Assembly: GCA_049999805.1 (NCBI GenBank)
Contig: JBNGIO010005894.1
Coordinates: 1-42,744, forward strand
DNA: 42,744 nt
Direction of reading: 5' to 3'
Source: Folioceros fuciformis
Taxonomy: Eukaryota
The notes under the pieces were generated by a model, which worked only from the letters and a program-made list of their open reading frames with translations, searched no databases and had not been told where the DNA came from. Shown here one piece after another: positions 18,869 through 41,140 of this stretch. Position numbers and translations under genes: made by a program. Each line of letters begins with the position of its first letter. Position 1 is the stretch's first letter.

Positions 18869-21800
18869 TCAGTCCTTCACCAACCTCTTCACGCTTGTAC
18901 GAGTACCTTGCTTCGAGTTTCTTCTCGCATGGTGCCGACCAGCTCCAGCTGGAGTGGCACGTGATTTCCGACGACCGCAGGGAAGAGTCTGGAATGTGCA
19001 CGATTTGTCTAGTGGAGTCTCGGGTTCGGGTAGCACCTGGGGTGGAGCTTCGTTTGGTCCCTCTGTGGTGGCGTTGCTGTCGAACCGGGATATTCGTTGC
19101 GTAAGACCTGTACAGGCGAGGAAGCCAGCTATGTCAGTGCTACTTCTCCACCATGGTTTGTCAGGTGGGCATCCTGCTCACCTGGTGGTATGTCTGAGAG
19201 AAAGCGCGATGCTATCTGTTGCTGTCCTCCGTCCATCAGTACATGCGTTACCTAATACACGGCCACGGAGAGGCTTGATGGGTATGCATCGTAGCAGGGA
19301 GTGAAGACCTGGAAAAGGGAAAGAGGGGAACAGGAGCAAGGTGACAGCTTTCACACCATAAAGAACCGTCTTGCTCGTGTCAAAGCTACATAGAATAGTC
19401 TCCTCTGCAGAGGTAAGCGCCATTGTATTGTAAGCAACCAGGACATCAACAACGTTTCCTCATCTGTGTTATCTCGAGGAACTTACCTCCTCTTCAAGTT
19501 CCTCTTCGATTTGAGATAAAGGGGACCTGTCTTCACAGTCCTCACAAGGAACTGGAGCACCTGGGTCCTTCTGTTCAGCTTCTTGGGGTAATTGTGGACT
19601 CTTTCCGAGTTGAGCAAAACTTGTGGAGTCAACAACTGGCAGGACTCCTTCGTTTGCTCGGACGAGGATGACTGAAGTCCATTCCAGACCTTTGGCCTAA
19701 AGGGAAACAAGAAATCGATTATGCCCTTGAGGCTGATTCCCAAATCAGACCGCAGCTGCAGTCATGTTGCATGCCTGCTCCTGCAAAACACTTGCCTGAT
19801 GAATCGTGGATAACGTCACTACGTCATCTCGGGCCTGGGAATCTCCAGAAGGTCCTGTGGCTTCCTTGTGGCTTTGATTAATGTTTGGATCACTGAGCTC
19901 ACCAAGTTCCTGCTCAAAGCTCCTCAGGGCAACATTGTCCAAGAAAGCCCTGAGCTTGAGGACGACAGTTTCCCAAACCTGATTGGATGCGCTACCAGAG
20001 GATGCGTCAAGAGATGCGAGAGTCACCACCTTGCTTGCTTTCCTGTGGCCCTTCTGCTTGCTGCCATATCGATTTTCACCTACATCCATGCCGAAGAATT
20101 CTGGTCAATTCTTGCACATGCATCTGCCTTTGGGATACAAATTTACACAGCAGTTATTTCAGATTAACAAGGTGCTTCCAGAACAGAGACTCCTACCATT
20201 CCTGTGAAGGGATGACAAGGAAGCCTGATAGTCTTTCTCAAATGAAGCAGCTTCTGTTAGGAGCGCTTTGATCCCTGCGAACTCAAAGTTGCCGGCAACT
20301 TGGCCTGGAATTTCTCCTGGTTCTCCGCCAGGGCCGCCTTTCAATCGCTTTGGTTGATTGCCATGCCTCAGGCTCTCCTCCGTCTTTAACTTAGTGGTGT
20401 GACCTACATCTCTGCATGGACCAACTTGTTGCACGACATTCATCACCAGGTCCCGTAATCCCATAGACTTCAGATCATCCTTGGCAGCTGCTACAACCTT
20501 GAGCAACATGTGCAAGCCACCCAGCGACTTGTCTTGCGAATCCGAATTTCTTTTGCTAACCTCAGCTGAAGCGAAACCGGAAAGCTCCTTACACAGCAGA
20601 AGGCCAAGAAGGTGAGAGCGGGTGCATCGCACCGCCTGCATTGCAGGCATTCTGTGAGTAGCCATAAGGTGGGAGATGCAGGCAGAAACTGCAGGACTGG
20701 GATTCTGACAGAACAGGCCATATAGCCGATGGCATGCGAGGTCATCAGATTCGTTGACAACAAGCCGCAATACTGCCACGACATCATCGAAGACTCGCCC
20801 TTTACCGTCACTTGTTCTAGCGCCAGCTGCAGCACTGCCAAGAAATACTTTCCCGTCAACCTGCGTAAGAGAGCAGCCTTTGAACTCACAAGGAATGTCC
20901 CTAGCTCTCAACTGATGAAGCACCTCCACTCCCACTCGATGCACTCGATAAAGCACAGCCATGTCTTGGTACATGATGCCTTGCTTGTGCAATGCACGTA
21001 TTTGATCAGCCACAGCAACCGCCTCACAGTGCTCGTTACGGCATTCACAGATCGTGAGAAGAGGCCCTGGTGGCGACAAAGTCCTGATGGACTTGGGCAT
21101 CCTGTTCTTGTTCCTGACTATCAGGCGTCGTGCAGCTGCAATGATTGCACCCGTACTTCTGAAATTCTGCTCCAGCTTCACAGTGGTCAAATTGGAAAAG
21201 ACGTCTTCACAAGCTAGGAAGTTCGAATACCCAGCAGCCCCCCTCCAGGAGTAGATTTGCTGGTCATCATCTCCCACAATAGTCAGGCATTTGTGACTGC
21301 TGCAAAGTAGTTTCAATAGCTCAAACTGGTCGGAGTCAGTGTCCTGAAACTCATCAACTGCGTTACAAACAATGACGAGACATCAGTGATGACTGAAAGC
21401 ATAACCACAATCCGTGGGAAGACTGCAGCAGAGGATACAGAAGCTGATCATACCCAAAACATAACGAGCACGTACTTCTGGGCGCTGCAGTGTTTCAGGA
21501 TGGTCTTTAAATACGTTGATAGCATGCCTGGTTCCCACCAGACACAGACCAGGAAATGTGAGACTACTTGTAGAATACAACTTTGCAGAGCAGTAGAATG
21601 TGAGGGGACTTCAGCTCACCCGACCTAATGAAAGCGTTGAAATCAACACCGTTGGCATCTTGCAAGACCCGGCAGTACTGGTGATATACCCAGCTGAAGA
21701 TATTATCGTCGTCGGTTAGCGGAGCTTCATCAATAAGGGCACAGCTGTTTTTCTGTCTCTCGAGTTTCAAAATTCGTTGAAGTATCTTCCTCGCCTCCAA

Positions 21801-29366: not shown

Positions 29367-30988
29367 ATGTTTCAGGACGTTGAGTTTAAAGGTAAGTGCA
29401 CTTGGTTCGTTCCGATTCTGTTCTCGTTTCAATGATGCTCGTTGTTCTGCATGCAGAGCTCCTGCATGATGCACGAATTTTCTTGAACTTCTGGTTTCTG
29501 GTTTTTTTAGAAAGGTTACGGTTATGGTGTTTATGCTTGCAAGCAGGGGGTGGCGAATCTGGTTCGAAGCATGGCAATGATTTCCTGCCGCTTAAGGATG
29601 CGAGGGAGGTCGTGGCGCGTTTGCGCAAGCTGTACCGGTCGTGCTGGGAGCTGTATGAGAGGAAACGAGCCAGTTATTGGATTCTCTTGCTTCTGAGTAC
29701 TCTTGGGATGATGGTTGCCTTTCCCGCTTCCTCGATTCTTACTCGACTGTACTTCGTCGATGGAGGCAACAAGAAATGGCTTTTGTCATGGGTTGCTGCT
29801 GTAGGGTTTCCCATTCCAGCAGCGGTGCTGCTGGTTATGTGCGTCGTTCAAAAGACTTGGCCTTCCCGTCTCTCCTGGGAGTTGTGGGTGGCCTATGCAG
29901 TGCTTGGCTTCCTCAGTGCTGGGGATAATCTTGCCTTCTCCTGGGCTTATGCTTATCTCCCAGCGTCAACTTCAGCATTGCTTACCACGAGCTCTCTTAC
30001 TTTCACTGGCATCTTTGCCTATCTTCTTGTCGGCTCGAGGATCACTCCGACGGAAACGAATGCCATCGTAGTCATGACAGCAGGAGCAGTGGTTTTGGCG
30101 CTCGATTCCAGCAGTGACAGGCCACCTGGTGTGAGTCAGAAGCAATATGCAGTAAGTCCTCCCCTGTGCAAAGGTGTTGACTGGTTGATGAAGTCTGATG
30201 AGAAGTCCTTCTCAATAATTGACTTCATTCGCAGGTCGGATTTGTGCTGGATATAGTTGGCTCGGCTCTGCATGGTGTCATTTTTGCTCTCTCAGAGCTG
30301 CTCTTCATCAAGTTCCTGGGAAGAAAGTCCTTCCGAGTGGTTTTAGAGGCACAGACGATGACCGGATTCTTTGCAACTCTCTTCACCACAATTGGAGTGG
30401 TTATTAACGGGGACTTCGCAGCAGCTAAATGGTACTTGTCGCTGCCTAGAACCCGATTCCGAACTGATGACATCCCCATCTCAATTTGATCTTTTTTGGA
30501 TGCTAGCCCTAACGGTCCTTCTGCTCTGCAGTTCACGAACCCTCACCAGCCCTGACGTATAAATGTATCGTCTCTTGTCCTCCTGTGACAGGGAATCGGC
30601 GCATTTCAAACATGGCAGAGGAGAGTATTTTCAGGTCTTGTTCTGGGCGGCTATTACATTCCAGTTAGGAATTCTGGGATCAGTCGGCATTTTATACCTG
30701 TGCTCTACCCTTTACGCGGGTGTCCTGAATGCTGCCCGGGTGCCCGTCACTGCGGTTGCTGCTGTCATTATATTCAACGATCCCATGGGGGGTTCGAAAA
30801 TTCTTGCCCTCATTCTCACTGTCTGGAGCGTGGGCTGCTATACGTACGGGAGTGTCAAGGAGATAGAGCAGAAGGCTAAGCTCACTCCAGATCCCCCTGC
30901 TCAGACAGGCAGCGTGGAAAACGCAACAACGGCCGATGCTTCCGGGCACCTTCGCCCTGCTTCTCTGGACCAACCATTTGAACGCTGA
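29367..30988 (+). CDS. Purine permease (PUP/PUNUT family, PUP5-like); exons 29367-29391, 29547-30151, 30235-30431, 30592-30988
   Basis: AFPASSILTRLYFVDGGNKKWLLSWVAAVGFP, LGFLSAGDNLAFSWAYAYLPAST and LYAGVLNAARVPVT; multiple TM helices; in-frame GT-AG junctions. Confidence 0.92.
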
Positions 30989-31493: not shown

Positions 31494-32663
31494 ATGGCGG
31501 CAGCACCGAAACCTGCGCTTCTGTTGTGCTTCTTGTTGACGCTATGGATGCAGGCTGTGGCGGCGAAGCAGCCGCTGTACTTGAGGATGGCGGACACAGC
31601 GCTGCAGATCTGGAACTCGACGGGGCCGGGGAAGGAAGTATGGAACTACGAGCGGGGTGTGCTCCTCTATGGCATTCAGCAAGTGTGGACGAGGACGAAT
31701 GATCCCAAGTACCTGGCATTCATCAAGAACCGCACCGATGCTTTCGTGGCCGATGATGGCACCATCCCGACATACAAATTAGGAGACTACACTCTGGACA
31801 ACATCAGATCGGGCACCATCCTCCTCTTCCTTTGGCTCCGCACTGGGGAGGAGAAGTACCGCACCGCCGCAGCACTCCTCCGAGAGCAGCTCCGTACACA
31901 CCCGCGCACCAACGAAGGCGGATTCTGGCACAAGCTGGTGTACCCGTACCAAATGTGGCTTGACGGCCTGTTCATGGCGGAGCCCTTCTATGCTCAGTAC
32001 GCGGTGATCTTCGACGAACCGGCTGACTTCGACGACATCGCGTTGCAGTTCACGCTGATGGAGAGGCACGCGCGCGATCCCACCACTGGCCTCCTCTACC
32101 ACGGCTACGACGAGTCCCGGAAGCAGGCGTGGGCCGACCCCGTCACCGGCCACTCACCGAGCTTCTGGGGCCGCGCCGTTGGCTGGTACTTCATGGCGCT
32201 GGTAGACACCCTCGATTTCTTCCCATCATCTCACCCGCAGCGCGCCGAGCTGATCGCCATCGTGCAGCGCTTGGCGGAGGCCGTGGCGAAGGTCCAAGAC
32301 AAGTCAGGGGTGTGGTGGGAGGTGCTGGATCAGGGAACCCGCACTGGCAACTACCTCGAGTCCTCCGCCTCCTCCATGTTTGTCTACAGCTTAGCCAAGG
32401 CTGTCCGCATGGGCTACCTACCTCGCACCTACGCCCATGTCTACATCAAGGGTTTCCGCGGCATCAGGAACCAATTCGTCGAGTTCCGCTCCGATGGCGG
32501 CATCAACCTCAACAGCACCGTCTCCGTCGGAGGCCTCGGCGGCAACCCCTACCGGAACGGCACCTTCGAGTACTACATCAGCGAGGCGGTGGTGACCAAT
32601 GACGCCAAGGGCGTCGGCCCCTTCCTCCTCGCGTCCATGCAGGTCCTCGCACACTCCCACTAA
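31494..32663 (+). CDS. Secreted GH105 unsaturated rhamnogalacturonyl/glucuronyl hydrolase (YteR-like, Glyco_hydro_88 clan), intronless
   Basis: Signal peptide MAAAPKPALLLCFLLTLWMQAVAA; WNYERG, LDNI, GGFWHK..YP.QMWLDGLFMAEPF, GLLYHGYDES, FWGRAVGW, YLESSASSMF and NDAKGVGPF. Confidence 0.93.
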   Translation: MAAAPKPALLLCFLLTLWMQAVAAKQPLYLRMADTALQIWNSTGPGKEVWNYERGVLLYGIQQVWTRTNDPKYLAFIKNRTDAFVADDGTIPTYKLGDYTLDNIRSGTILLFLWLRTGEEKYRTAAALLREQLRTHPRTNEGGFWHKLVYPYQMWLDGLFMAEPFYAQYAVIFDEPADFDDIALQFTLMERHARDPTTGLLYHGYDESRKQAWADPVTGHSPSFWGRAVGWYFMALVDTLDFFPSSHPQRAELIAIVQRLAEAVAKVQDKSGVWWEVLDQGTRTGNYLESSASSMFVYSLAKAVRMGYLPRTYAHVYIKGFRGIRNQFVEFRSDGGINLNSTVSVGGLGGNPYRNGTFEYYISEAVVTNDAKGVGPFLLASMQVLAHSH

Positions 32664-33139: not shown

Positions 33140-34319
33140 ATGGAGGTTCTTAGTAGAGCAGCAGGCGTGGAGGCGCGACTGCTTCAGCAGCAGCAGCCGG
33201 CGACTTGTGCTGCCGGCGGTAGTGGTGCGCTGGGGTTTGCCAAAAGCGGGGTGCTGGCGTGCAAGCCTGTTGTGGTGCAGGGGGGGAGCATCAGCTGCCG
33301 ATGNNNNNNNNNNNNNNNNNNNNNNNNNNNNNNNNNNNNNNNNNNNNNNNNNNNNNNNNNNNNNNNNNNNNNNNNNNNNNNNNNNNNNNNNNNNNNNNNN
33401 NNNTGAGAAATCGCTGTGTTGCGGATCGGGGGCTGAGCTGGTGGAATGGCTGGTGTGTGGATCAGGTTTCGCGTCGTTTCCGACTGTGTTAGACATCAAC
33501 CGGATCCGAGACATTCTTCCTCACAGGTGCCTGTTTGAGCTTGCCTGGTGCAGCCGAGTAGGGGAAAGTGGCGTGTGTGACTTCCCGTTTTGCATGCGGG
33601 TGTGGCATGCTGGAGGAGGTGTCCCGGCCCGAGGCTTGGGGGCTGGGTTTCAAGGTGGTTGCTTGCAATTGGCTGCAGATTTCCCTTCTTGCTGGTGGAC
33701 CGGGTGATTGAGCATACTCCTGGTGNNNNNNNNNNNNNNNNNNNNNNNNNNNNNNNNNNNNNNNNNNNNNNNNNNNNNNNNNNNNNNNNNNNNNNNNNNN
33801 NNNNNNNNNNNNNNNNNNNNNNNNNCTCCTGGTGTGTCCGCTGTGGCCATCAAGAATGTGACCATCAACGACAACTTCTTTCCAGGGCACTTCCCGGAAC
33901 GCCCTATCATGCCTGGTGTTCTTATGGTCGAGGTGAGCTGGCCCCACGGGTTTCATTCGGGTTTTGGCACTTTCTTCCTTCCCATCTCCTATCTCTACGT
34001 TGTGTTGAACGTCTACGTGTTCCCTCTTTGCTTCTTTTGTTCCATGCAGGCCCTGGCGCAAGTGGGAGGAATTGTGATGCTACCGCCAGACGAAAGTGGG
34101 AGCGGCGGAGGCACCAAGGAGATTTTCTATTTCGCAGGAGTTGACAAAGTGCGATGGCGGAAGCCGGTTGTTCCCGGGGACACACTGGTGATGCGCATGA
34201 ATCTGATAAAGTATCAGAAGCGCTTTGGCATAGCCAAGCTGGAAGGCAAAGCGTATGTTGGCGGGGAAATAGTCTGCGAAGGAGAATTTTTGTTGGCCCT
34301 GGCGACCGAAAAGGAGTAA
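33140..34319 (+). CDS. fabZ: Plastid 3-hydroxyacyl-ACP dehydratase; spans two N gaps
   Basis: [57 protein letters not shown] and [17 protein letters not shown]. Confidence 0.93.
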
Positions 34320-35207: not shown

Positions 35208-36926
35208 CTAATCACTGTCTTCAGCAAAACGAAGGTGCTCCCCAAGAGGAGTCGGCAGGCCCTTCAACCTCGTGATACTTGGAGATAAGACGCGTACATC
35301 CGCTTCACTTGCAGATTTCACGATTTCTTCCTCCATCTCGCCATCGCTGGTATAGTGGAAGCGCTTGTGTGTGCCAGATGGTTTCGGTAGTCCCTTCAAA
35401 CCACGCTCACTCATGGAAATGTGGCTGATCCCCAAACAGAGCTCGTCGCAATCCACTTCATCGAAGTCATCGTATTCTTCCTCGCCATCATACTCATCTT
35501 CGCAATCTGCCCACTCATCTTCGTCACAGTCATCTTCGTTGTCGAATTCCTCGAAGTGGCCTTCCGTAGCGGGTTTTCTGTGAACCCAAACGTATGGCTC
35601 ATCCGACCCCTCTCTAAGCCCATCTTTTTCTTCCCTCAATCGGAACTTGACGAAACTCGGATTCCCAACCAAGGGGGTGCTCACCAGCTCAGGTTCCCCT
35701 GCTACGTTCTTTTCGACCTCAGGCGAGCTTGAACAGGCCTCAATCCTCTTCGCGAAGTCCAGTGATGTCTCACTATCTGTGGACTCCTCATCCAGGGGGT
35801 CATACGACATGTCGTCCATTCCGTCTGGAGAAGGCGGAGAGCGCACATTCACATCCACAGACCACCTGTCCTCTTCCCCGTCAGCTGAAGCATCTTTGAC
35901 AGTTGGAGTGCTTTGCACTGGATATCCTGTTTCAGTCAAAACCGGATCGTTACCGAGTGTGCAACTTTTCACAGGAGATTCAAACATAAGTGTGCGGGGA
36001 TTCTGGTCTGCTGAACCCGTGTCCAAATCGACCTGAAACCCAGCAAAAAAGGAAAGGGTTGAGAGCTATCGAAAAGTGTTGCAGCAAAGAAACGTCAAAA
36101 TCCGATAGAAATACAAAAGCAGCACGAAGCCATACCGCGTCCTGTGTCGCAGCCTCCAAAACAGGTGAAAGCACTTCCGCCGCCTGAACGTTGCCATCCT
36201 GAACTGCGGACTGGTGCTCCAGATAAGTCTTCGGCGAGCAGAGAGGCACTGTCAACAGTGTGCTTTCCAAAGTCTGCACGGTCGGCTCCGAGACAATGTC
36301 CAAAGCAACAACAGGATCTGTTCCCTCGTGTGCACAGGTTGGACCAACCACGAACGAGATTGGCACCTCAGGTTCATCCTGCCCGCTGTTTTGCCACACC
36401 ACATTAGCAGGAGTGTTCGCGGGAGTTGGAGCCGCCAGAAAACTGGGAGAGTCAGCAAACTTAGACAGCAGCGGTGGCACTGGTCGGGCAACTTTGAATT
36501 GCTCCCCTGCTCCCTGCTGAAGAATAGTGAGAGCGTGCGCACGGAGCACCTCATCTCCAGGAGTGCCCTGGCACGTCTCAGAAGAGGGAGCTCCCCGGGG
36601 GCAGGAGGGTGTCAAAACACCACCCGAAGTAGTATGCGCCAAGGGCGTCAGACCTGCAACGGGAGAGTCATTGGTCAAGTCCGCAAGAGCCCTGCGACCC
36701 GCCTTTTTTCTTGAAGTGGCCCCAACAGACTTCTTCACGCTTACAGGTGTGGCAGGCACACCCACGGCTGCAAAAGTACACGACACCATCAGAAACCATC
36801 AAACCGGACCTTCAAACGTAACACTACCTCAACATCAAACGCAAATACCAGATCCCTGCTGAGCTTACCGGCGCCGCCAGCTGCCCGTGCCTGGCTTCGC
36901 GTAACTCTCCTCGCAGAATTATCCAT
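35208..36926 (-). CDS. Conserved plant acidic/disordered protein with D-box (At5g66230/At3g51230-like); exons 36926-36869, 36767-36136, 36032-35208
   Basis: RRVTRSQ, RRALADLTNDSP, APTPANTP, RTLMFESP, WSVDVN, acidic tract, DELCLGIS, GTHKRFHYTSDGE and LKGLPTPLGEHLRF, recalled as family motifs; in-frame GT-AG junctions. Confidence 0.8.
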
Positions 36927-37380
36927 TCCCTCCTGCAGGAACAACAAGCACACCGTCCAGGACAGGTCAGCCCTTCCGGACCAGCAAGTCAGGAAGACCA
37001 CGAGAACAAAAACCAAAGAAGCACCTGCCCCAAAGCAAGCCGTCTGCCTCACAACGCACAAGCTGGAGCCTGCACCAAAACCTCTCCCGCATTAGAAACA
37101 GAAGCGGCCAACCGCACCTCCTGATGCGATCCTGAAGCTCAAATCGGGACATCACGCTTCCGCAGAAAGACGCACTTACAACAACAAAATGCAGAGCGCG
37201 CACGCGAACCACTGCGAGTGCACCGCTTCCGACCAGCTACCGGACTGTGAAAGAAGGAGGGAGCAGACACAAATGCCGAGGAACCAGAGCGCAATGAGCA
37301 GACTGGGGAAGAGCAGCGAGGAGAACTGTCGAAAGACTTTCGAAGTAGAAGATGTGTTATAGGTGGGAGCCTGGCCGCGA

Positions 37381-37615
37381 TGAACGGCACCAAGATTAAC
37401 CGCGTCCAAAAGACTCGAAACAGTGCTTGCGGAATGAGGGTAGCGCTAAGCTGGTTGCAGCCTGCGTTTGCTCCACAGGCTTAGAAGGCCAGTTTTACGC
37501 GCCTTTTAAAGCACGAAATGAAAGTAGCGCTTGGGCGGGTGCACTTTGGTTTGAATTTGGGCGGCGTAGCTACCGCAAGGGAGCCGTTGGTGCGAGTGTA
37601 CAGCTGGTTTGAATT
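37381..37615 (-). promoter_or_regulatory. Candidate G2/M promoter module (MSA AACGG and CHR-like TTTGAA) upstream of the D-box gene
   Basis: CCAACGGCTC (minus, 37581-37590), AACGG at 37383-37387, and TTTGAA at 37550-37555 and 37608-37613 within a repeated ggtttgaattt. Confidence 0.5.
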
Positions 37616-37972
37616 TAGGTTTGCTGTTTTCCAGTCATTTTAAACCCTATCTTACGAACATGCTAGATTGCGTCATTTACAGCGAGAGTAAAGCACAATG
37701 CGACTCGTTGCATAGATCCGCACGTTTAATTCGATTAATTTAGTTCATTTTAATAACAGTAAAGGTTTCATTACACACACAGATGGAGAACCCTTCTGTG
37801 TATTTTATGTACAAGGCTTGAATCGTTTGACGGATCAATTGTCCCACATGTTGTGAGGAAGCATGCTCTGTTGCGCATCCGCTGAGAGTTCCAACAGTTA
37901 TGATGTTTGGTACCTAGAACTGGAACTCTTAGACGAGTACAAACGTCTGCATGCCCTCACAAGAAAAGCTTG

Positions 37973-40858
37973 TCAATGCCGATCCCCGCATGAACAAGAG
38001 CCATTCACGAAACAGTGCACTCGGTGCGCATCTCTAACAATGATGTCTCGCTCCTCGAGACGTGACATGATCTTGGTACCACTGTGGCACTCGCTGCACA
38101 TACGAAGATTCTTTGTGATTAACAAAGTTGTGCCGTCCGGAGTGTTCAGGAGACCATAGGCCAAGGCAAGTTTCTCCGCATGTCCACACAAGGAGTATAT
38201 TCTATCCTCCTCGGACCAGCCCTTGAGAATGAACTCCGTGTTTTGCACATGGCTTCCTTGCTCCTTCAACCGTGAGTTCATGTTCTTCAGCTTTGGTAAG
38301 AGATCGTGCCTCTCCTCTCCTACTGTGAACTCGTGGACCTTGCTCTTCACTTCGATGCAAGCCTTTGCGGGCTTCTTCACAGCCCCCGCTGACTTTCGCA
38401 AGCTTTCTATCCTGTCAGCCTCGTCCCACCTGCCTGCGCATGCATAGATGTTTGCCAGGAGGACATAGTAGCTACCGTTTTGGGGATCCAGTATCATAAG
38501 GTGGTCGAAGCATCGTCTTCCTCGATCTACGTCACCGTGGCCTTTGCAGGCACTCAGAAGAGAAGTCCAACCCGCCACTGAATTCATGCATGGCTTGCTG
38601 CATAAGATGCCTTCTGCCTCGCCTACATGGCCTGCTCGAGCCAGGAGGTCGACTAAACAGTTATAATGATAGTCATTGGGTGCAATACCATGCTCATCCA
38701 TCATCGTCCTGAAGTACCGTTGGCCCTCGTCCACCAGGCCCGCATGACTGCATGCAACAATAAGGCAGATAAATGTAGTCTCGTCTGGTTGCATGCCTTG
38801 CCGACACATTACCTTGAAAGACTGCATAGCCAGCTCGGCCTCACCATGTTCTGCGTAGCCATTGAGCAAAGCATTCCACGTCACCACGTCTCTCGTGTGC
38901 ATACCATTGAAAACTTGTCGGGCTTCGTCCAAACTGGCACACTTGACGTACATGTCAACCAGGCTATTGCCAATGACTACATCAGCTTCCATTCCCCTTT
39001 CCCTTATTTCTCGATGAAGCTGCCTCCCCTGATGCAAAGCGCCAACGCTAGCACATGCTCCAAGCAGGGAAATGTATGTGACGCGATTGGCTGCAGACGT
39101 GCCTGTTACTTGCATGCTTTTATACAGAGCCAGAGCTTCTCCGCCCAGCTCCTGTCGCGTATAACCAGAGATCAGGGCATTCCATGTCACCGAATCTCTG
39201 GACGGCAAGCCATCAAAAACCCTCCGAGCATCTTCCATGCTTCCACATTTCGAGTACATATCCACCAAACAGTTTCCGACTGTCGGATCAGTTTCCAGAC
39301 CCTGTTCCTTTATCTGTGCATGAAGCTGCTTCCCCTGATGCAGATACTTGCCGTTAGCACATGCTTGGACAAGAGACACAAAGGTGGCAGAATCGGCAGC
39401 TGTTGCTGCCTCTTCTTGCATGCGTGCATAAAGAGCAAGGGCTTCTTTTCCAAGCCCATTCTGAGCATATCCTGCGATCATGGCATTCCATGTCACCACA
39501 TCCCTTCTGGACAACGTCTCAAATACTCTGTGAGCGTCAAGCAAGCTCCCACATTTCGAATACATGTCCACCAAGCAGTTGCCAATCGTCACATCAGTTT
39601 CCAGTCCCATCTGCTGAATTTGTGCATGCAGCTCCTTGCCTTGGTGCAGGGCTCTGACACTGGCGCATGCCTGCAGCAGACATACAAATGTGACATGATT
39701 GGGTGGAACTATGCCTTCCCCCCGCATACTTGGATACAGTTCCAGAGCTTCCATACCAAGGCCATGCTGTGCATACCCTGCAAGCATAGCAGTCCATGTC
39801 ACCACACTTTTCTTGGGCAAACTCTCAAACACTTCGCGAGCCTCCTCCAGGCTCCCACACTTCACGTACATGTTCACAAGGCTGCTAACCACGAATTTAT
39901 TGGTCTTCACACCACTTGCCAGGATATCAGCATAAACCTCCCTTCCTGCAACCAGATCCTCTGCCATTGCACAGGCCTTAAGAGCCGCCACGAACACATA
40001 GTTGTCTGGCTTCAAGCTCGAATCCCGCATTCTCCGATACAACTCGATAGCCTCTACAGGCTGTCCATGCTGTGCATGAGCCAAGACAATGGAAGCCCAC
40101 ATGTAGGCATTCGGGGCAGCAACACTCCTAAAAGCCTGCCTTGCTTCCTCCAGCTTGTTATGAGAGGCATAGAGCAAGATCAGGCGGTTTGCCAAGAACG
40201 GGCTCAACTCACGCCCATTTCTGACAGCAAAGGCATGAGCCCGCCTGCCAAAACTCAAGTCCTTCTGACCCATACATTTCTTCAGCACACAATGAACAAG
40301 AGTCTCTCTAACCTCCCATCCCCGTTCCACCAACAAGTCCAAAGCTTCAACAGCCGCCTCAACCTCCCCCTCCTCACAACATCTGCTCAATCTCTCCGCC
40401 TCCAAACCCCCTTCACTTCCTCCACTCCCAAAGCCAGCGTCCCACCGTGCTAACCTCGAAAGCACCCAGTCAGGCTTGTAACAATTGTGCAGCCACAAGC
40501 CCTGCTTGGACGTCTTGTGCCTGAAGTCCGGCTGCCCGGGACTGCTCTTCCCCATCCTGTTGTCCCACCACTGTCCCGGATCCAGGAAGAATTGCTGCCA
40601 CAAGCTCTCCAGCTCATCGCTCTGTTCGCCTCCTTCAAGTGCATAGGCCCCTCCAACAAAAGCTATCCCCGCATCACACAGTAATCTCCTGCAAGAGTGA
40701 GCCCAATGTCCTCCCCACAACCCACAGCTTTGCTTGGGTGACCTTGGCAGAGTACATGACCGTAAAGCGGATTGCGTGATCAACGCTTCCCCAGACTCCG
40801 AGAATGCGGAATTGCTGCATACGTGAAACCTCCTTGCGAGCTCCACCATCATGGCCAT
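37973..40858 (-). CDS. Intronless PLS-PPR-E1/E2-DYW:KP (KPAxA...DRH type) organellar RNA editing factor with an N-terminal OSB-like PDF motif
   Basis: 961-aa ORF: targeting-peptide-like N-terminus; WWDNR..K..P..PDFRHK..LWL motif; P-L-S triplets; E domains; KKPAKACIEV, HAEKLA, KNLRMCSECH and C-terminal CSCGDRH. Confidence 0.95.
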   Translation of the reverse strand: MAMMVELARRFHVCSNSAFSESGEALITQSALRSCTLPRSPKQSCGLWGGHWAHSCRRLLCDAGIAFVGGAYALEGGEQSDELESLWQQFFLDPGQWWDNRMGKSSPGQPDFRHKTSKQGLWLHNCYKPDWVLSRLARWDAGFGSGGSEGGLEAERLSRCCEEGEVEAAVEALDLLVERGWEVRETLVHCVLKKCMGQKDLSFGRRAHAFAVRNGRELSPFLANRLILLYASHNKLEEARQAFRSVAAPNAYMWASIVLAHAQHGQPVEAIELYRRMRDSSLKPDNYVFVAALKACAMAEDLVAGREVYADILASGVKTNKFVVSSLVNMYVKCGSLEEAREVFESLPKKSVVTWTAMLAGYAQHGLGMEALELYPSMRGEGIVPPNHVTFVCLLQACASVRALHQGKELHAQIQQMGLETDVTIGNCLVDMYSKCGSLLDAHRVFETLSRRDVVTWNAMIAGYAQNGLGKEALALYARMQEEAATAADSATFVSLVQACANGKYLHQGKQLHAQIKEQGLETDPTVGNCLVDMYSKCGSMEDARRVFDGLPSRDSVTWNALISGYTRQELGGEALALYKSMQVTGTSAANRVTYISLLGACASVGALHQGRQLHREIRERGMEADVVIGNSLVDMYVKCASLDEARQVFNGMHTRDVVTWNALLNGYAEHGEAELAMQSFKVMCRQGMQPDETTFICLIVACSHAGLVDEGQRYFRTMMDEHGIAPNDYHYNCLVDLLARAGHVGEAEGILCSKPCMNSVAGWTSLLSACKGHGDVDRGRRCFDHLMILDPQNGSYYVLLANIYACAGRWDEADRIESLRKSAGAVKKPAKACIEVKSKVHEFTVGEERHDLLPKLKNMNSRLKEQGSHVQNTEFILKGWSEEDRIYSLCGHAEKLALAYGLLNTPDGTTLLITKNLRMCSECHSGTKIMSRLEERDIIVRDAHRVHCFVNGSCSCGDRH

Positions 40859-41040
40859 CGCGTCCTAACCAAATTGCGGTCTTCCCGACCGACCCAGCCA
40901 TGCTTCGTGCATAGCCGGAGACAACCATTCCTTCGCTCCCGATAAATACTAAGCCTAGTTTGCAATCATGGGACAACACGCCAAAACTGAAACATGCCAA
41001 CGAATATCACGAGAGCTGTCTGTCACTGATGTCCCTGGGC

Positions 41041-41140
41041 NNNNNNNNNNNNNNNNNNNNNNNNNNNNNNNNNNNNNNNNNNNNNNNNNNNNNNNNNNNN
41101 NNNNNNNNNNNNNNNNNNNNNNNNNNNNNNNNNNNNNNNN
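41041..41140. other. Scaffold gap of 100 N (others at 33304-33403 and 33726-33825)
   Basis: Runs of exactly 100 N. Confidence 1.

Follow-up and report, generated by a model that had tools for sequence, protein, structure and literature searches.

An OSB-type PDF motif fused to a PLS-class PPR protein with a KP-type DYW domain in Folioceros fuciformis

Background

Why should a protein built like an organellar RNA editing factor carry a motif known from DNA-binding proteins? The question is raised by a pentatricopeptide repeat (PPR) gene in a 42,744-nucleotide stretch of DNA from Folioceros fuciformis (assembly GCA_049999805.1, contig JBNGIO010005894.1, positions 1 to 42,744; hereafter “the window”). 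A reading made from the sequence alone (the “sequence-only reading”) had placed, at 40463-40603, a “PDF” motif like that of the OSB (Organellar Single-stranded DNA Binding) family at the N-terminus of a candidate U-to-C editing factor of DYW:KP type.

In the standard picture, PPR editors consist of a transit peptide, a PLS array, an E region and a DYW domain. The PDF motif, on the other hand, is described in reviews of OSB proteins as a green-plant-specific element of ~50 residues which occurs there in at least one C-terminal copy and binds single-stranded DNA (ssDNA), the AtOSB1 motif alone being sufficient for such binding (PMC6963530, PMC4166229, PMC6451138). AtOSB1 and AtOSB2 are described as preferring ssDNA over double-stranded DNA or RNA (PMC4166229), and AtOSB2 is reported as a tetramer (PMC6963530). 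As for the DYW domain, published descriptions give the marks of the KP type as an altered PG box, Ala in the HxE active site, an end other than DYW and a conserved Lys88 (PMC9478123, PMC11845758), and such domains are said to occur in three groups only, hornworts, lycophytes and ferns (PMC9478123).

Results and Discussion

The N-terminal module is an OSB-type PDF motif

A phmmer search with residues 76-145 of the encoded protein against 1,835,955,588 representative proteins returned 668 matches at E<=1e-3, of which 212 reached E<=1e-10 and 20 reached E<=1e-30; many of the matches hold 2-13 copies of the motif, and the follow-up below rests on 150 of the 668 that were listed. An SSB-like domain was found in 79 of the 150 by a jackhmmer profile seeded with the SSB domain of the Chara braunii match, which is above the Pfam SSB cut-off (E 2e-21; two other matches had a sub-threshold SSB hit). 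The SSB-like domain lies N-terminal to every PDF copy in 78 of the 79, which is the OSB layout, and one of the 79 (P0025) bears the source name “protein OSB2, chloroplastic-like [Asparagus officinalis]”.

These 79 proteins supplied 195 repeats for an OSB-only PDF profile from which the window protein and all PPR proteins were excluded. The profile matched the window protein at residues 78-140 with 78.3 bits (E 1.4e-26 for one sequence), while the best of 1000 shuffles of the region reached 7.4 bits. Moreover the window copy is identical at every one of the 15 columns whose conservation among OSB-type repeats is 80% or more, P110-D111-F112 included; all invariant columns of a further alignment (A1) are present as well, and the residues conserved in OSB PDFs are likewise kept across 89 PPR-linked repeats. 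On these sequence comparisons the stretch is a genuine OSB-type PDF motif, homologous to the OSB repeats that carry ssDNA binding, as the sequence-only reading had proposed. The position given for it, 40463-40603, was right; its coding strand is the minus strand, where the peptide LWQQFF...KPDWV forms residues 86-132 of a 961-aa open reading frame (ORF), and the plus-strand reading of the same bases is unrelated.

Pfam, in contrast to the profile, returned no family for residues 1-195 even at E<=10; therefore no Pfam model sees the PDF stretch. A word-indexed protein search, whose index is too coarse for a motif of this kind, gave no match for residues 70-150 at near lengths and none for a 70-aa fragment at the “longer” setting.

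Two side observations concern the listed matches. Sixty of the 150 had neither an SSB-like domain nor PPRs (P0009, P0004, P0006, P0014 and others), and some of these are long arrays of 9-11 PDF repeats (e.g., 908 aa with 11 copies), an arrangement outside the OSB descriptions given in reviews. One protein of 1526 aa (P0041) combines PDF repeats and an SSB-like stretch with a kinesin motor domain; this may reflect a gene model merged from neighbours and not a genuine fusion.

The PDF module precedes an 18-motif PLS array and an E region

Behind the PDF motif, Pfam recognised PPR repeats (PPR_2, E 3.6e-78; PPR, E 1.6e-75), the E motif and a DYW deaminase (Table 1), while neither the whole protein nor residues 1-195 matched an SSB or OB family; the window protein is not an OSB protein. 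The placing of the motif between a targeting-like N-terminus, here 77 residues long, and the PPR array in one intronless ORF was thereby borne out. The N-terminal 77 residues are rich in Ala, Ser, Leu and Arg with few acidic residues, and we infer that they are probably an organelle transit peptide.

The full-length AlphaFold2 model, made from an alignment of 36 relatives, had a mean predicted local distance difference test score (pLDDT) of 84.4. Residues 1-77 were disordered. The PDF module (78-139) comprised a helix (78-92), three strands (97-99, 112-114 and 120-121) and a second helix (130-141); it was followed by 36 helices at 150-752, corresponding to 18 PPR motifs, then by two helix pairs (E1 and E2) and a mixed alpha/beta DYW domain. 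Folded alone from a 33-sequence alignment, the module gave the same helix-strand-strand-strand-helix order (mean pLDDT 79.7), with block means of ~84-93 as against ~76-91 in the full-length model. The models thus show the PDF as an independently folded module, joined to the N-terminal end of the 18-motif array by a flexible linker of 9 residues.

As modelled, this module is without a recognisable solved structural counterpart: i) Foldseek against the PDB gave no match at E<=1e-3 (best E 4.2); ii) VIA-align, over 48,161 chains, reached a Z of 4.7 at most, with none at 5 or above; iii) a PDB sequence search with the PDF fragment gave no match at E<=10; iv) a PDB search with alignment A1 gave PPR structures only, because A1 contained PPR columns.

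A 595-aa ORF runs antisense to the PPR gene at 38666-40453 (plus strand); it is most likely a by-product of the codon make-up of the repeats and not a gene.

The DYW domain carries the marks of the KP type

The C-terminal domain matched Pfam DYW_deaminase over residues 870-959 (E 2.2e-31; 107.9 bits against a cut-off of 24). Several features distinguish it from an ordinary DYW domain: i) the PG box is replaced by KKPAKACIEV (KPAKA at 829); ii) the active site reads HAE rather than HSE (HAEK at 893); iii) Lys stands at position 88 of the 133-aa domain; iv) the protein ends in GDRH instead of DYW. The CxxC motif is present (CSEC at 921, within CSECH). A side-by-side BLASTP alignment with a PG-type relative from Sphagnum displays the KP-type differences directly, and the closest relatives in sequence are likewise of HAE type. 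Judged by published feature descriptions rather than a published KP alignment, the domain is of KP type, in agreement with the sequence-only reading, and by sequence it would presumably convert U to C.

The fusion lies in one intact gene

The 961-aa ORF is single, uninterrupted and intronless, and its first ATG is preceded immediately by in-frame stops. Contigs of four sequencing runs were compared with the locus; that they derive from RNA is a guess rather than a matter of record, and only coverage and bridging were relied on. One X1 contig (record 5, 1492 bases) extends from 106 bases 5' of the ATG through the presequence and the PDF into the first PPR motifs without difference or gap, and another (record 2) runs from the DYW domain to 225 bases beyond the stop codon. 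The junction of PDF and PPR is bridged in two related organisms as well, by X2 record 16 (39170-41025, with 144 differences and 6 gaps) and by X12 record 11 (39568-40951). Thus PDF-coding and PPR-coding parts are contiguous in assembled molecules of three organisms. In neighbouring genes, whose introns are short (92-180 bases), the X1 contigs drop GT..AG or CT..AC segments as cDNA would (e.g., 33930-34048 and 36030-36134). Short introns of this kind, taken with the reported distribution of KP-type domains, suggest a compact genome from one of the three plant groups named above, probably a hornwort. Contigs cannot reveal transcript ends. No evidence was drawn from the gap between the X1 contigs at 39342-39472, which falls inside the repeats of the PPR array, or from the thin cover at 36768-37747.

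The sequence-only reading had asked whether transcripts start only downstream of 40463. Since cDNA-like contigs run across the start codon and the PDF into the first PPRs, transcripts are not confined to sequence downstream of that point. The locus holds an intact nuclear gene that is free of introns and encodes a PPR protein of the PLS class, and the identity and architecture of this PDF-PPR protein are, in our judgement, close to certain.

That the resemblance arose by chance, that the assembly is chimeric or that two genes were taken for one is scarcely credible, despite a gap of 100 N lying 183 bases upstream of the ATG, given the wide separation of the profile score from all shuffles, the single frame free of stops from ATG to DYW, the contigs of three organisms across the junction and the same architecture in 50 other proteins.

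Over the PDF-coding part (40263-40800) the summed contig depth of runs X2, X3 and X12 was several-fold above that of a single orthologous contig, and other contigs carry small indels at 40570-40589; this is a hint only that these organisms hold further PDF-bearing genes at least 80% alike.

Table 1. Features of the PDF-PPR locus in the window
Feature	Position	Strand	Evidence
Whole intronless coding sequence, 961 aa + stop codon (37973-37975)	37973..40858	-	ORF list, translation, upstream in-frame stops
Presequence, residues 1-77	40628..40858	-	pLDDT <50; Ala/Ser/Leu/Arg-rich, few acidic residues; no Pfam family
PDF module, residues 78-140 (core motif 40463-40603)	40439..40627	-	OSB-only profile, conserved columns, fold model
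Gly/Ser-rich flexible linker, residues 141-149	40412..40438	-	pLDDT <50 at residues 140-148, full-length model
PLS-type PPR array, residues 150-760, 18 motifs (36 helices)	38579..40411	-	Pfam PPR, PPR_1, PPR_2, PPR_3; model
E1 + E2 motifs, residues 761-828	38375..38578	-	Pfam E_motif 774-835, E 1.4e-13; two helix pairs at 761-824
DYW deaminase-like domain, KP type, residues 829-961	37976..38374	-	Pfam DYW_deaminase; KP marks
Region 5' of the ATG on the same contig as the PDF	40859..40964	-	X1 record 5 covers 39473-40964, 0 differences, 0 gaps; contigs cannot show transcript start
Region 3' of the stop codon on the same contig as the DYW domain	37748..37972	-	X1 record 2 covers 37748-39341, 0 differences
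Assembly gap, 100 N, 183 bases upstream of the ATG	41041..41140	.	Sequence read-out

PDF-PPR proteins are widespread in seedless plants and not specific to the KP type

Among the 150 listed PDF matches, 11 have one to three N-terminal PDFs followed directly by PPR repeats, and none of these 11 matched the SSB-like profile; a few further short fragments resemble them. The sources of this arrangement include Diphasiastrum complanatum (a lycophyte), Sphagnum compactum (a moss), Riccia sorocarpa (a thalloid liverwort) and Adiantum capillus-veneris (a fern). A whole-protein search added 119 PPR relatives which, with three isoforms from the PDF matches, made 122 proteins; N-terminal PDFs were found in 50 of these with the OSB-only profile at E<=1e-3, among them many Diphasiastrum proteins, proteins of Calypogeia fissa (a leafy liverwort) and Sphagnum jensenii, and several without a species name.

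For 121 proteins (the 119 relatives, the window protein and Sphagnum P0095) the DYW domain was classed by the residue in HxE. PDFs were present in 24 of the 46 proteins of PG type (HSE), in 23 of the 55 without a DYW domain, in 3 of the 14 of KP type (HAE), the window protein included, and in 1 of the 6 of HCE type; as the relatives were picked by word sharing with the first 500 query residues, the sample is biased and these shares are not population estimates. The link between PDF and DYW:KP that the sequence-only reading had implied did not hold up: the fusion is, on these sequences, not specific to the KP type, most carriers being PG-type or DYW-less. Being common in PG-type and DYW-less relatives, the PDF is therefore not a special feature of candidate U-to-C editors; judged from sequence it is an accessory that PLS-class PPR proteins of seedless plants carry widely. 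No PDF was found in the 11 seed-plant relatives (seven Ginkgo, three Cryptomeria and one Hevea), a number too small to claim absence from seed plants.

Among 48 PDF-bearing relatives at E<1e-5, the 25 that have a DYW domain carry one PDF each, whereas the 23 without have one (14 proteins), two (six) or three (three). PDF copy number thus seems tied to lack of the deaminase.

Three further observations concern individual relatives. First, Riccia sorocarpa P0122 has a PDF followed by PLS-type PPR motifs and comes from a complex thalloid liverwort, a group that according to Gutmann et al. 2020 is said to have neither RNA editing nor PPR editing factors; roles other than editing are therefore possible for PDF-PLS proteins as well. 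Second, a Diphasiastrum protein of 1362 aa (P0185) holds a second PDF in its middle (residues 675-742), perhaps because two tandem PDF-PLS genes were joined in one model. Third, Diphasiastrum P0161 and P0171 have, upstream of a canonical PDF, a short remnant like the second half of a PDF, which suggests a decayed former second copy.

PPR-linked PDFs cluster in the PDF tree

A first tree of 384 PDF repeats aligned with MAFFT was unresolved (12 label changes for 15 rows) and was superseded by a second, built on 53 profile-aligned core columns from a non-redundant set of 27 PPR-linked and 134 OSB-linked repeats. In the second tree the PPR label needs four changes, as against a mean of 25.4 in shuffled labels (0 of 500 shuffles as low). 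A tree constrained to unite the PPR-linked repeats had an approximately unbiased test value (p-AU) of 0.90 and a likelihood 54 units above that of a quick free search. PPR-linked PDFs thus cluster in a pattern as expected from a single old fusion followed by family expansion; such a single origin is not rejected by these sequences, the columns being few and the clade not proven.

Within the gene, PDF and presequence differ in conservation. Between the window protein and two KP-type relatives (P0239 and P0222), 24 and 56 of the 77 presequence positions align, with 8 of 24 and 17 of 56 identical, while the PDF aligns almost fully, with 29 of 63 and 30 of 58 identical.

The architecture has neighbours among known systems

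Like OSB proteins, the window protein has a ~60-residue PDF of the form W..FF..P..WWDNR..K..P..PDF(K/R)HK....LW.....P.WV, with all 15 strongly conserved columns, and presumably both have an organelle presequence. OSBs, however, have an OB/SSB-like domain followed by one to many C-terminal PDFs, whereas the window protein has a single N-terminal PDF followed by a PPR array and a deaminase-like domain, with no OB/SSB-like domain matched.

With the candidate and designer U-to-C factors of PLS-E-DYW:KP type known from hornworts, lycophytes and ferns it shares the PLS array, E1/E2, KPAKA, HAE, CxxC, Lys88 and the non-DYW end, as far as these features are given in the published accounts (PMC9478123, PMC11845758). 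Those accounts, on the other hand, name no module between transit peptide and PPR array where they describe the architecture, and the designer proteins begin with PPR motifs. Closest in layout are the PDF-PLS-DYW:PG proteins of Diphasiastrum complanatum, Sphagnum and Calypogeia, with the same order of presequence, PDF, PLS, E and DYW and one PDF per DYW-bearing protein; they differ in having an ordinary C-to-U type DYW domain (PG box, HSE, DYW end). In databases they are named “hypothetical” or “unnamed protein”, and no description in print was found in the literature searched. Finally, maize PPR4 (an RRM-PPR protein), MORF and ORRM resemble the window protein in that a general nucleic-acid-binding or helper module is described as aiding a sequence-specific PPR tract (PMC9459714, PMC13386178); they are unlike it in fold and family, PPR4 being a P-class protein that acts in splicing and MORF and ORRM being mostly separate polypeptides.

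Whether the fusion had been published was left undecided by the sequence-only reading. No description of a PDF-PPR fusion was found in the literature searched: none of the papers on the “PDF motif” concerned PPR proteins, and the motif strings occurred in no relevant paper. The main text of a 2026 kingdom-wide survey of domain fusions in editing factors contains neither “OSB” nor “PDF”. A 2026 paper on OSB evolution kept only proteins with both an OB-fold and a PDF and never mentions PPR; PDF-PPR proteins would therefore have been filtered out. The abstract of Gutmann et al. 2020 reportedly mentions no such module. Within the literature searched, then, PDF-PLS-E-DYW:KP is a genuinely new domain architecture in an enzyme class already known, and the PDF-PLS family in seedless plants is more interesting than the single fusion. 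An additional module that recurs across dozens of editing-type proteins from seedless plants has apparently escaped record because surveys use Pfam-type libraries, which hold no PDF model.

A built-in single-strand binder is the proposed role

We propose that the PDF would serve as a built-in, sequence-unspecific binder of single-stranded nucleic acid at the 5' end of the PPR footprint. After import the presequence would be removed; the PPR array would read ~18 nt, ending 4 nt upstream of the target base, on which the DYW:KP domain would act, presumably converting U to C. The PDF, on its flexible linker at the N-terminal end of the array and hence at the 5' end of the RNA, would bind single-stranded nucleic acid irrespective of sequence, which would have the effect of raising affinity, keeping open the RNA that lies upstream of the footprint, or aiding capture of the target or sliding onto it. 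The PDF would in effect be a built-in accessory factor. To this mechanism, taken whole as one claim, we give about even chances.

Several lines of evidence are consistent with the proposal. PPR arrays are described as binding RNA in parallel orientation, position -4 lying opposite the last motif (PMC10482289), so that the N-terminal end faces RNA ~22 nt upstream of the edited base and beyond. For moss PPR56 the same source reports that editing is more efficient when native RNA further upstream of the footprint is present and is inhibited by RNA secondary structure (PMC10482289); this effect falls where an N-terminal module would sit, and therefore favours the mechanism by inference. Retention of the conserved OSB residues in the PPR-linked repeats is counted for it as well.

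Other points weigh on the opposite side: i) RNA binding by a PPR-linked PDF is a prediction by analogy with OSB proteins; ii) the preference of OSB1 and OSB2 for ssDNA over RNA, as described, fits RNA binding less well (PMC4166229); iii) 11 of the 14 KP-type relatives carry no PDF, several of them being short and maybe incomplete at the N-terminus; iv) in P0239, a KP-type relative, the PDF is partly decayed, with one of the WW pair and the N changed, so that the module may be dispensable in some copies; v) the runs that bridge the junction are contigs whose RNA nature is a guess, none being recorded as RNA.

The ssDNA preference favours a different role, in which the PDF would bind single-stranded organellar DNA (in transcription bubbles, R-loops or intermediates of replication and recombination), concentrating the editor at nucleoids where nascent RNA would be edited. 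This reading draws on the sole biochemical activity reported for the motif in these reviews, ssDNA binding in preference to RNA (PMC4166229, PMC6963530), and on the retention of the same residues in PPR-linked copies. Yet a single PDF is the rule in DYW-bearing members, where OSBs often have several; the modelled linker of 9 residues would hold the module close against that end of the PPR tract which faces the RNA 5' end; and the location of the protein is only postulated. We consider a nucleoid tether unlikely.

Protein-protein and passenger roles are less likely. In the former, the PDF would recruit OSB or other PDF-PLS proteins, or pair DYW-less with DYW-bearing ones so that the deaminase acts in trans. 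DYW-less PDF-PLS relatives, which would need a deaminase in trans, are indeed numerous, and 9 of the 23 carry two or three PDFs; AtOSB2 is moreover described as tetrameric (PMC6963530). What reviews ascribe to the PDF motif, however, is DNA binding and not oligomerisation, and this role appears very improbable to us. Just as doubtful is the notion that the PDF is a passenger, copied along with the expansion of the PLS family after an old fusion and now of little or no function here. One ancient event plus expansion would explain the spread, as the PPR-linked PDFs cluster and a single origin is not rejected, and the decay in P0239 points the same way. Against it, all conserved columns are intact in the window copy, the presequence aligns poorly with P0239 and P0222 while the adjoining PDF aligns almost fully, and liverworts, mosses, a lycophyte and a fern have kept the module, as has this genome.

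If a single-strand binder at the array's 5' end is what aids RNA capture, the module bears on how single-polypeptide editors work without MORF-type helpers, and would help explain why sequence upstream of the PPR footprint matters. It is a small natural add-on to try in designer C-to-U and U-to-C editors. Moreover, the role of the PDF would be widened beyond DNA maintenance, providing a second, independent context in which to study PDF binding.

A more far-reaching scenario, which we rate as rather improbable, is that PDF-PLS is an ancestral land-plant design: fused once before the seedless lineages split, it would have been a self-carried general RNA-binding helper doing the job of the separate cofactors of seed plants (MORF), and would have been lost in seed plants when these cofactors took over. 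If so, RNA binding would join the one activity known for the PDF, the binding of DNA, and attaching or deleting the module would be a means of adjusting how efficiently C-to-U and U-to-C editors work, natural and designer ones alike.

Other genes in the window

Elsewhere in the window, a long exon at 20159-21100 (minus strand) matched a UvrD-like helicase C-terminal domain (E 3.6e-7) and another at 29432-30256 (plus strand) matched a purine nucleobase transporter (PUNUT, E 2.4e-36); both loci are ordinary neighbouring genes. Downstream of the latter, an intronless 389-aa ORF with a hydrophobic N-terminus (31494-32663, plus strand) gave a full-length match to Glycosyl Hydrolase Family 88 (E 2.3e-107). 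This family is best known from bacteria and fungi, and a horizontal origin of the ORF may be worth a check.

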